A DNA stretch of 64,000 nt from Escherichia coli (lineage in GTDB: Bacteria; Pseudomonadota; Gammaproteobacteria; Enterobacterales; Enterobacteriaceae): the NCBI RefSeq assembly GCF_016903815.1, contig NZ_CP069973.1. One strand, 5' to 3'. The notes below the pieces were generated by a model. The model saw only the letters and a list, made by a program, of their open reading frames with translations. It searched no databases and was not told the DNA's origin. The translations under genes were made by a program, and so were the position numbers. Shown here piece after piece: positions 31,877 to 53,377 of this stretch; positions within the stretch are counted from its first letter, which is position 1, and every line of letters starts with the position of its first letter.

Positions 31877-32074
31877 TACATTATCGACTGCACGCCGGAT
31901 ACGACACATCCGGCGATTTGAACATACAACATAATCCCACCTTATTACTCATACCCTTCTATTGATATGGATTAATAATTCTTAACCCAAAATAGGTAGA
32001 CTCCCTCTATTGTTAGCGCGCTAAATATTCAATATATAAACTTTTATATAACGATAAAGAACAGGGAGTGAGTT

Positions 32075-38511: not shown

Positions 38512-39126
38512 ATGACCCATTTTTCACAGCAAGATAATTTTTCTGTCACGGCGCGCGTGTTGGGCGCGCTGTTTTATTACGCTCCAGAGAGTGCGGAAGC
38601 CGCACCTCTGGTTGCGGTACTCACCCGTGACGGCTGGGAAACTCAGTGGCCTCTACCAGAAGCGTCATTAGCGCCGCTGGTGACGGCTTTTCAGGCACAG
38701 AGTGAAGAGACTCGCGCCCAGGCCTGGCAGCGTTTGTTTGTCGGCCCGTGGGCACTGCCGTCTCCGCCGTGGGGATCGGTCTGGCTGGATCGCGAATCTG
38801 TGCTGTTTGGCGATTCAACATTGGCACTTCGTCAGTGGATGCGCGAGAAAGGCATTCAGTTTGAAATGAAGCAAAACGAACCGGAAGATCATTTTGGTTC
38901 ACTGCTCTTGATGGCTGCGTGGTTGGCGGAGAATGGTCGCCAGACAGAATGCGAAGAATTGCTGGCATGGCACCTTTTTCCGTGGTCAACACGTTTTCTT
39001 GACGTTTTTATCGAAAAAGCAGAACACCCTTTCTACCGTGCACTGGGTGAACTGGCTCGCTTAACGCTGGCGCAATGGCAATCACAACTGTTAATTCCTG
39101 TCGCGGTTAAACCACTCTTTCGATAG
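38512..39126 (+). CDS. dmsD: Tat proofreading chaperone DmsD
   Basis: 204 aa from MTHFSQQDNFSVTARVLGALFYY…. Confidence 0.9.
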   Translation: MTHFSQQDNFSVTARVLGALFYYAPESAEAAPLVAVLTRDGWETQWPLPEASLAPLVTAFQAQSEETRAQAWQRLFVGPWALPSPPWGSVWLDRESVLFGDSTLALRQWMREKGIQFEMKQNEPEDHFGSLLLMAAWLAENGRQTECEELLAWHLFPWSTRFLDVFIEKAEHPFYRALGELARLTLAQWQSQLLIPVAVKPLFR

Positions 39127-39320
39127 GATCACCTTATTATTGCCGGATGGTGACGATTACGCGCAATTCGGCAATAATAGGTTACAGTGTCACGTTTTTT
39201 TATCTCTTAAAGCACGCACTGCTTTTGCGGCTGGCCTCTTTTGCCGCAAAATAGTCGCCCGTGTTTCATTGCCCATTTCTGCTCATGCATCATCTACACA
39301 TCTATCCGGATCTGCGCACT

Positions 39321-40577
39321 ATGTTCCGCCGTCTGCTTATCGCAACAGTCGTCGGTATTCTCGCGGCCTTTGCCGTTGCCGGGTTTCGTCATACGATGCT
39401 GCTACTGGAGTGGTTGTTCCTCAATAATGACTCGGGCAGTCTGGTCAATGCAGCGACAAATCTTTCCCCGTGGCGACGGCTGCTAACTCCGGCGCTCGGC
39501 GGACTGGCGGCGGGTTTGTTGCTGATGGGCTGGCAGAAATTTACCCAGCAACGCCCTCATGCGCCGACCGATTACATGGAAGCGTTGCAAACCGATGGGC
39601 AGTTTGATTACGCAGCAAGCCTGGTTAAATCGCTTGCCTCTCTGCTGGTAGTAACCAGCGGCAGTGCAATTGGTCGCGAAGGTGCGATGATTCTTTTAGC
39701 TGCCCTTGCCGCCTCCTGTTTTGCCCAACGTTTTACGCCACGCCAGGAGTGGAAATTATGGATCGCCTGTGGAGCTGCGGCGGGAATGGCTGCGGCCTAT
39801 CGCGCCCCGCTTGCTGGCAGTTTATTTATAGCCGAAGTGCTGTTTGGCACTATGATGTTGGCCTCTCTCGGCCCGGTGATTATTTCCGCCGTCGTGGCGT
39901 TGCTGGTTAGCAATCTGATTAATCATAGCGACGCGTTACTCTACAGCGTACAACTCTCAGTGACGATTCAGGCTCGTGACTATGCGCTGATTATCAGTAC
40001 AGGTGTGCTGGCAGGTCTGTGCGGACCACTGTTGTTAACGTTAATGAACGCCTGTCATCGTGGATTTGTAAGTCTCAAACTTGCGCCGCCCTGGCAACTG
40101 GCACTGGGCGGGTTGATCGTGGGTCTGCTTTCCCTGTTCACACCTGCAGTGTGGGGCAACGGCTATAGCACCGTACAATCCTTTTTAACCGCCCCGCCAC
40201 TGTTAATGATCATTGCCGGGATCTTCCTCTGTAAACTGTTTGCCGTGCTGGCGAGTAGTGGTTCTGGCGCGCCCGGTGGTGTCTTTACACCGACGCTATT
40301 TATCGGTCTTGCCATTGGCATGTTGTATGGTCGTAGCCTGGGATTATGGTTCCCTGATGGCGAAGAAATTACGCTTTTACTCGGATTGACCGGGATGGCG
40401 ACACTGTTGGCGGCAACCACGCACGCGCCGATTATGTCGACGTTGATGATATGTGAAATGACCGGGGAGTATCAGCTACTCCCCGGTTTATTGATTGCCT
40501 GCGTAATTGCGTCGGTAATTTCGCGGACGTTACACCGTGACTCTATCTACCGCCAGCACACTGCGAAGCATAGCTAA
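39321..40577 (+). CDS. clcB: Voltage-gated ClC-type chloride channel ClcB
   Basis: 418 aa from [17 protein letters not shown]…. Confidence 0.85.
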
Positions 40578-52432: not shown

Positions 52433-53377
52433 ATGAAGCTTAAGAACACCCTCCTGGCGTCGGCACTGCTTTCTGCTACGGCATTCTCCGTTAACGCAGC
52501 AACAGAACTGACACCGGAGCAAGCGGCAGCGGTTAAACCTTTTGACCGTGTAGTGGTTACCGGTCGTTTTAATGCTATTGGCGAAGCGGTGAAAGCCGTT
52601 TCTCGTCGCGCAGATAAAGAAGGTGCCGCCTCTTTTTATGTTGTCGACACTTCTGATTTTGGTAACAGCGGTAACTGGCGTGTGGTCGCTGACCTCTATA
52701 AAGCCGATGCTGAAAAAGCAGAAGAAACAAGTAATCGCGTAATTAACGGTGTTGTCGAACTGCCGAAAGATCAGGCTGTTCTGATTGAACCGTTTGACAC
52801 GGTCACCGTCCAGGGCTTTTATCGTAGCCAGCCAGAAGTCAATGATGCCATCACCAAAGCAGCAAAAGCGAAAGGTGCCTACTCTTTCTACATTGTTCGT
52901 CAAATCGATGCCAACCAGGGCGGCAACCAGCGTATTACTGCATTCATCTATAAAAAAGATGCTAAGAAACGTATCGTCCAGAGCCCGGATGTGATCCCGG
53001 CAGATTCCGAAGCAGGACGTGCAGCTCTGGCTGCCGGTGGCGAAGCTGCGAAGAAAGTTGAGATCCCGGGTGTTGCGACTACCGCATCACCAAGTTCTGA
53101 AGTCGGTCGCTTCTTTGAAACCCAGTCATCAAAAGGCGGGCGTTACACCGTCACGCTCCCGGATGGCACTAAAGTCGAAGAACTGAACAAAGCGACCGCA
53201 GCGATGATGGTCCCGTTCGACAGCATCAAATTCTCTGGCAACTACGGCAACATGACCGAAGTCTCCTATCAGGTTGCGAAACGTGCCGCGAAGAAAGGTG
53301 CTAAGTATTACCACATCACCCGCCAGTGGCAGGAACGTGGTAATAACCTGACCGTCAGCGCAGATCTGTATAAATAA
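52433..53377 (+). CDS. ydgH: DUF1471 periplasmic protein YdgH
   Basis: 314 aa with signal peptide and three internal repeats; hairpin plus T-tract terminator about 20 nt downstream. Confidence 0.9.
   Translation: MKLKNTLLASALLSATAFSVNAATELTPEQAAAVKPFDRVVVTGRFNAIGEAVKAVSRRADKEGAASFYVVDTSDFGNSGNWRVVADLYKADAEKAEETSNRVINGVVELPKDQAVLIEPFDTVTVQGFYRSQPEVNDAITKAAKAKGAYSFYIVRQIDANQGGNQRITAFIYKKDAKKRIVQSPDVIPADSEAGRAALAAGGEAAKKVEIPGVATTASPSSEVGRFFETQSSKGGRYTVTLPDGTKVEELNKATAAMMVPFDSIKFSGNYGNMTEVSYQVAKRAAKKGAKYYHITRQWQERGNNLTVSADLYK

Follow-up and report, generated by a model that had tools for sequence, protein, structure and literature searches.

REP elements, the malE-malF REP among them, are 3'-terminal stabilising stem-loops of operons. 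[quoted passage not shown] 2008, as cited in PMC6907758 and PMC3330122). The consensus of the MatP site is GTGACRNYGTCAC, 13 bp in length (PMC6907758, Table 2), and matS has a published density of about 3 sites per 100 kb of the terminus domain (PMC10945525). Published matS lists comprise 23 or 28 sites; no list of coordinates was found in PMC3330122, PMC10945525, PMC4738335 or PMC8934667, and an exact-sequence text search likewise returned none.

The gap between dmsD and clcB of E. coli is compared here with these systems. It is fairly probable that the gap consists of three separate and ordinary elements, namely a hairpin at the 3' end of an mRNA, a matS site bound by MatP, and a clcB core promoter that underlies a second palindrome. 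All three belong to well-known kinds.

Locus and gene annotation

The window, that is, the whole stretch of E. coli DNA that was analysed, is 64 kb long. It is 100% identical to E. coli strain 7/2, and the dmsD-clcB region was found in 5,420 of 5,426 complete E. coli genomes. The RefSeq annotation of this identical strain agrees with the gene labels dmsD and clcB used in the original prediction, which was made from the sequence of the window. The two genes that border the gap are:

38512-39126, + strand: dmsD coding sequence, annotated by RefSeq in K-12 and in the identical strain 7/2 and present in the list of open reading frames
39285-40577, + strand: clcB coding sequence (430 aa), from the automated RefSeq annotation, beginning at a conserved upstream ATG

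The final gene of the ynfEFGH-dmsD operon (named in PMC5203670) is dmsD, with its stop codon TAG at 39124-39126; clcB follows downstream on the same strand. Window positions equal K-12 (NC_000913.3) positions minus 1,625,994. The K-12 annotation shows no feature and no REP in the gap, and an Rfam scan of 39127-39284 gave no match, even at E up to 10.

In K-12 the clcB start is annotated 12 codons later (window 39321). The 12-codon extension, M(H/Q)(H/R)LHxYPD(L/I)R(T/A), is conserved from Escherichia to Kluyvera, Salmonella and Enterobacter, with synonymous third-position changes; the K-12-type ATG is CTG in two Citrobacter, and the clcB homologues are mostly of the long form (429-436 aa). The K-12 start is probably 12 codons too short. 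Since the upstream ATG at 39285 is conserved and the long form is usual, the real gap is 39127-39284. At 158 nt it is shorter than under the K-12 annotation. A 35-aa open reading frame (MVTITRNSAIIGYSVTFFYLLKHALLLRLASFAAK) at 39147-39254 was considered as a gene and rejected: its start codon lies inside the stem of the hairpin described below and indels disrupt its frame in close relatives. It is probably spurious.

The four-gene operon of the osmU osmoprotectant transporter lies between dmsD and clcB in Salmonella and Citrobacter sedlakii (L024, 2115-6000; L026). In Enterobacter, dmsD is missing and the upstream neighbour of clcB is the osmU operon. Escherichia, the C. braakii group and Kluyvera have no osmU between dmsD and clcB. 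The dmsD stop of Kluyvera is separated from the long-form ATG of clcB by 5-14 nt (L016, 3613-3625; L017; L019); this junction has no hairpin, no matS and no promoter block, and clcB is probably co-transcribed there with the ynf operon.

The hairpin downstream of dmsD

The first of the two palindromes is the following:

39133-39182, + strand: palindrome 1, a hairpin in the 3' untranslated region of dmsD (from folding, the Escherichia alignment and its single copy)

The original prediction had described it as a 9-bp stem with a loop of about 26 nt. The 9-bp core, ATTATTGCC/GGCAATAAT, is present with a gap of 25 nt and extends to arms of 14 pairs, one of them G.U on the + strand (TATTATTGCCGGAT, 39135-39148, with ATTCGGCAATAATA, 39166-39179). 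The 17-nt loop holds an inner helix of 5 bp, and up to 4 weak pairs lie outside the arms. The stem is only partly G+C-rich, its outer part being A/U-rich. The palindrome is extragenic, at the 3' end of the gene, and begins 8 nt past the dmsD stop. Folding gives -25.6 kcal/mol on the + strand, which is the dmsD strand, and -18.5 kcal/mol on the - strand (z-scores -5.8 and -4.0), the + strand structure being stronger by 7 kcal/mol. Inverted repeats of 14 bp with at most one mismatch and a loop of 3-30 nt average 0.4 per shuffled window, against two distinct repeats in the real window; palindrome 1 is therefore far beyond chance. The sole other inverted repeat of matching strength in the window lies at 4914-4969 (ACAATGGTTAGCATA...TATGCTAGCCATTGT, loop of about 26 nt).

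The window carries a minority allele of palindrome 1, found at 99% identity or more in 113 genomes, while 5,227 genomes have a K-12-like form that shows 3 differences; both alleles retain a strong stem. The best consensus promoter match of the gap, GTGACG-17-AATAAT (9/12, at 39150-39178), falls in the loop and 3' arm of palindrome 1 and occurs only in E. coli proper.

Pairing was analysed in 11 aligned Escherichia sequences. The eight core pairs of palindrome 1 are paired in all but five cells, all at one pair, which is G.A in E. coli proper, where this inner mismatch is offset by a longer outer stem. Pair types vary between GC, GU and AU (one pair is GC in 5, GU in 5 and AU in 1 of the 11 sequences, another UG in 6 and CG in 5), and four pairs vary on both sides. 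All wobbles are G.U on the + strand, so that the opposite strand, or a DNA dyad, would have A.C mismatches in their place. The E. coli E69 lineage has a wholly different stem, CCGAAGGGCGT with ACGCCTTTCGG. A transcription factor binding to palindrome 1 as DNA is extremely improbable on these data. The dyad symmetry is long and intergenic, as such a site might be; however, the arms differ completely within Escherichia (ATTGCCGGAT, CCGGATGGCG, CCGAAGGGCGT) and read GGCAGG in Citrobacter and Salmonella with pairing retained, the wobbles break the symmetry of the DNA, and the element follows a stop codon instead of preceding a promoter.

At most loci outside Escherichia, a strong hairpin of unrelated sequence starts 10-25 nt past the dmsD stop (z about -3 to -5); such hairpins were seen in Citrobacter, Pseudocitrobacter and Salmonella. 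The stem is GGCAGG...CCTGCC in Citrobacter and Salmonella, and TTTTCT follows directly 3' of it in Salmonella and in one Citrobacter genome. In Pseudocitrobacter the position is filled by a typical REP. The latter finding, a stem base (CCGGAT...ATCCGG) like that of REP stems, and a likeness of 39142-39176 to the hairpin after osmU in Salmonella (GCCGGATGG...ATCCGGCAATA; L024, 5873-5902), which 1 of 300 shuffles equals in score, would all be in keeping with a decaying REP-like remnant that has no function of its own. Such a remnant is nevertheless unlikely. Palindrome 1 is present in one copy per genome in all 5,419 E. coli genomes that carry it, K-12 has no annotated REP there, and the 13-nt REP head GCCKGATGCGRCG has no match at 2 or fewer mismatches (4 mismatches by eye). 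Throughout Escherichia the pairing has been actively kept, an argument for selection. Since REPs are themselves 3' stabilisers, this alternative concerns the origin of the hairpin more than its function. Membership of palindrome 1 in a REP family was ruled out by consensus and copy number.

Two further observations were made in this comparison. The Salmonella hairpin that resembles palindrome 1 sits on the opposite side of the matS site, and a REP-like dyad (GCCGGATACGACACATCCGGC) was met at 31894-31914 of the window in the REP consensus test.

A terminator or attenuator of the ynfEFGH-dmsD operon had been proposed for the palindromes. For palindrome 1 a terminator-like or 3'-end RNA hairpin is supported by the kept pairing, by wobbles that suit only the dmsD strand, and by the presence of a hairpin at this place in each genus that has a gap after dmsD, but not the canonical form. 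No T-run follows the stem directly, GGTTACAG being the next sequence, and palindrome 1 is thus not a canonical intrinsic terminator. The nearest run of T is:

39195-39201, + strand: T7 run, 15 nt past the hairpin arms, varying among relatives

This run is too distant for a canonical terminator tail, and no hairpin lies immediately 5' of it. A consensus terminator scan of the gap found 0 terminators. The same scan also misses the hairpins with a GC stem and a T-run that are seen by eye in Salmonella and Enterobacter, apparently through stem extension that consumes the T-run, and its negative result therefore counts only when combined with inspection of the sequence itself. In PMC7815308 the tables of 3' ends and start sites, from conditions that allow hardly any expression of the anaerobic ynf operon and of clcB, have no dmsD entry.

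Palindrome 1 shares with intrinsic terminators the position of a stem-loop at an operon end. Its equivalents in Salmonella and one Citrobacter are GC-rich and have TTTTCT directly after the stem, whereas in E. coli the outer stem is rich in A/U and a U-tract is missing. With 3'-stabilising stem-loops it shares stability, a place after the last stop codon of an operon, formation on the transcribed strand and the lack of a U-tract, as well as a lineage-specific sequence at a conserved position, the same slot being taken by a REP in Pseudocitrobacter. From REP families it differs in being a single-copy element outside their consensus. Palindrome 1 may accordingly be classed as a putative 3'-end RNA hairpin, terminator-like or stabilising, of the ynfEFGH-dmsD mRNA. 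Transcribed at the end of this mRNA, it would form a long, stable hairpin a few nucleotides past the stop codon. As there is no U-tract, it would most likely act as a 3'-end barrier against 3'-to-5' exonucleases after termination further downstream; it may also pause RNA polymerase or terminate weakly.

The matS-type site

Next to the hairpin lies an element that the original prediction had overlooked:

39181-39193, no strand assigned: GTTACAGTGTCAC, a matS-like candidate MatP site, matching the consensus at 12 of 13 positions

The deviation from the consensus is at position 3 (T for G). Within Escherichia, 10 of the 13 columns are invariant while the flanks diverge; the variable positions are position 3 (T/G) and the N and Y of the centre, and the central triplet is always R-N-Y, in the five variants AGT, ATT, AAC, AGC and GGT. 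The homologous position carries a full 13/13 match to the consensus in E. coli E69, Salmonella, C. sedlakii, Pseudocitrobacter and Enterobacter. No other element of the gap is as well conserved, and the site has been kept in five further genera irrespective of the flanking genes. It is kept both in Enterobacter, without dmsD, and in E. coli, without osmU, and is hence independent of either neighbour.

In K-12 the site occupies 1,665,175-1,665,187, which we take to be within the terminus region around dif (about 1.59 Mb). Exact matches to GTTACRNYGTCAC number 2 in the 64-kb window against 0.01 expected, a 200-fold enrichment; the second (GTTACACCGTCAC, 53142-53154) has the same orientation and lies within the ydgH coding sequence. 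The frequency of matS-type sites in the window fits the published density. As RNA, the matS-like site has a structure of 0 kcal/mol. The palindrome together with the T7 run was also considered as a mini-terminator, and was rejected on the same folding energy of 0 kcal/mol.

A distinctly improbable reading is that GTTACAGTGTCAC, rather than being matS, was left over from the osmU promoter region or serves another regulator. It would draw on the motif GTCACA, which would be a -35 element in Salmonella, on a scan of the Salmonella sequence that gives GTCACA-18-GATAAT and GTGACA-17-TATTTT overlapping the site, and on a location about 240 nt upstream of osmU wherever osmU occurs. Yet the site appears to be under purifying selection across Escherichia, where there is neither osmU nor a matching -10. 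The fit extends beyond a hexamer to the full 13-bp palindrome with its R-N-Y centre, and a second site of the same type is present in ydgH, the pattern being enriched in the window as given above.

GTTACAGTGTCAC is thus regarded, from its sequence, as a candidate MatP-binding site. It would be bound by MatP as part of the terminus-organising system and would act as DNA, independently of the flanking genes. It is like matS in being a 13-bp palindrome with an R-N-Y centre, in its location in the terminus region, and in an Enterobacteriaceae-wide occurrence that does not depend on context. It differs in the T at position 3, which leaves it at 12/13 in E. coli.

A hairpin directly upstream of matS recurs in Escherichia, Salmonella, C. 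sedlakii and Pseudocitrobacter, with a different sequence in each. It is conceivable, though very doubtful, that this layout is a functional unit in which a strong hairpin shields matS and a weak clcB promoter from incoming RNA polymerase; MatP occupancy would then stay independent of the anaerobic induction of ynfEFGH-dmsD. In Enterobacter (L025, 2210-2262), matS is at the apex of a larger palindrome, AAGCGCCTTTTAAA-[matS]-TTTTAAAAAAGCGCTT.

Palindrome 2 and the putative clcB promoter

The part of the gap next to clcB contains three overlapping or adjacent features:

39212-39215, + strand: GCAC block, invariant in 10 sequences of 4 genera, just upstream of the putative -35
39223-39251, no strand assigned: palindrome 2, a perfect 9-bp stem formed by TTTTGCGGC (39223-39231) and GCCGCAAAA (39243-39251) with an 11-nt loop
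39225-39252, + strand: putative sigma-70 promoter of clcB, with -35 TTGCGG (39225-39230), a 16-nt spacer and -10 CAAAAT (39247-39252)

Palindrome 2 had been claimed with a loop of about 10 nt, and its 9-bp stem is indeed perfect. Perfect 9-bp repeats number about 8 per shuffled window against 37 overlapping matches observed, and palindrome 2 alone is mildly unusual, with about 0.02 expected in the 158-nt gap. It folds at -15.3 kcal/mol on the + strand and -13.8 kcal/mol on the - strand (z-scores -3.1 and -2.8), with no strand asymmetry. RNA folding and comparative alignment had been suggested as checks on the two palindromes: both fold, at the z-scores given for each, and both are conserved, in different ways.

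Among the 11 Escherichia sequences no covariation was found in palindrome 2; five pairs are invariant and four deviate only through unpaired cells. Its two inner pairs exist in E. coli proper only, an A.C mismatch interrupts the stem of E. albertii, and E. coli 2017-02-2CC has a shorter stem. There is no T-run on either strand, the sequence that follows being TAGTCGCC on the + strand and GCAGTGCG on the - strand. Palindrome 2 is terminator-like on neither strand. The alternative of an RNA hairpin, acting as attenuator or terminator of read-through from dmsD or lying in a clcB 5' leader that begins at an upstream start, is quite unlikely. The folding energy and its z-score on the + strand are in its favour, two substitutions of the E. 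coli lineage each add one pair and lengthen the stem from 7 to 9 bp, and the promoter-like site within palindrome 1 would place palindrome 2 in a leader. Against it, besides the missing T-run, covariation and strand asymmetry and the broken or shortened stems, is the finding that in Enterobacter the palindrome decays while the -10-like hexamer persists.

The sequence of this region is conserved as a block. CTTTTGC and CAnAATA are invariant in 10 sequences of 4 genera (Escherichia, Citrobacter, Salmonella and Enterobacter). Between TTGCnn and CAnAAT lies a spacer of 16-17 nt whose sequence varies, and 29-32 nt separate the end of the -10-like hexamer from the conserved ATG. In 6 of 8 sequences from outside E. 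coli proper, TTGCnn/16-17/CAnAAT is the top candidate of an approximate promoter matrix. In E. coli it ranks third or fourth; TTGCGG-16-CAAAAT is a weak match of 7/12 (3/6 and 4/6), below the threshold of the consensus scan. Where clcB has the osmU operon upstream, the block is retained beside clcB; a GC hairpin with a T-run precedes it in Enterobacter and C. sedlakii. The start-site tables of PMC7815308 contain no sense start of clcB, under conditions where clcB is barely expressed. MazF cleaves 24 nt upstream of the K-12 clcB start, from which it follows only that the mRNA reaches upstream of 39297.

In the arms of palindrome 2 it is the DNA sequence that is conserved, within a block that accompanies clcB, and the pattern fits a promoter, probably a weak sigma-70 promoter of clcB, possibly with an operator. 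The left arm would overlap the -35 and the right arm the -10; with this overlap, clcB transcripts would begin some 25 nt ahead of the ATG at 39285, the predicted start being near 39259-39261 (K-12 about 1,665,253-1,665,255). The palindromy of palindrome 2 would be largely incidental, a by-product of the putative core promoter. The candidate is like weak sigma-70 promoters in the conserved TTG of the -35, the conserved A2, A4, A5 and T6 of the -10, the spacer of 16-17 nt and the fixed distance to the start codon; it differs in its match of only 7/12 and in extra invariant bases. The latter, namely the invariant TT before TTG and the invariant GCAC block, are beyond what a bare promoter explains, and the extra bases (CTT before TTG, and GCAC) hint at an additional factor or regulator.

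The original prediction had offered a regulator-binding palindrome as one of its readings. This may hold for palindrome 2, a conserved DNA block that accompanies clcB, but not for palindrome 1, where the RNA pairing is what is conserved. The roles are the reverse of those probably intended there, palindrome 1 being the terminator-like RNA element and palindrome 2 the element at the level of DNA. An operator in the strict sense, at which a dimeric regulator on TTTTGC/GCAAAA half-sites controls clcB and overlaps or replaces the promoter, is possible but not likely. Both arms are conserved in sequence with no compensatory change, conservation beyond the needs of a bare promoter includes the TT that precedes TTG and the TCTTTT portion of the loop, CTTTTGC occurs twice as a direct repeat 16 nt apart and once inverted, and an alternative tight palindrome, TTTTGC-C-GCAAAA, lies at 39239-39251. 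However, half-sites 15-21 nt apart are an unusual geometry, and the tight palindrome is perfect in E. coli proper only. The right half decays to CAGAAT or CACAAT in Salmonella and Enterobacter, where exactly the positions critical for a -10 are kept. No known regulator motif was recognised, and the literature searched names no regulator of clcB. The weak sigma-70 promoter is the preferred reading of palindrome 2.

Other candidates for this region were dismissed. A sigma-54 promoter over palindrome 2 (TGGCC...TTGC) has a GG-GC spacing of 10, not 12, and by eye the GG is missing in sister species. A YnfL/HusR SELEX site near clcB is located in ynfK, outside the gap. Compared informally with the sites of CRP, FNR, NarL, PurR, NagC/Mlc and the marbox, the palindromes are to our knowledge no match in spacing or sequence.

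Origin of the gap

The E. coli gap looks like a left part derived from the dmsD-osmU spacer, with matS, a T-rich stretch and CTTAAAG, joined near 39205-39212 to a right part derived from the osmU-clcB spacer. The junction differs in the C. braakii group, where the matS site is missing.

Implications

The map of the gap matters little beyond annotation and leaves current understanding unchanged. It provides a testable map of an unannotated intergenic region of E. coli, with a proposed 3' boundary of the ynfEFGH-dmsD transcript and a candidate promoter of clcB, a poorly studied acid-resistance antiporter gene. For K-12, it would move the clcB start codon 12 codons upstream. A conserved matS-type site with a GTTAC half-site bears on the degeneracy that is tolerated in functional MatP sites.
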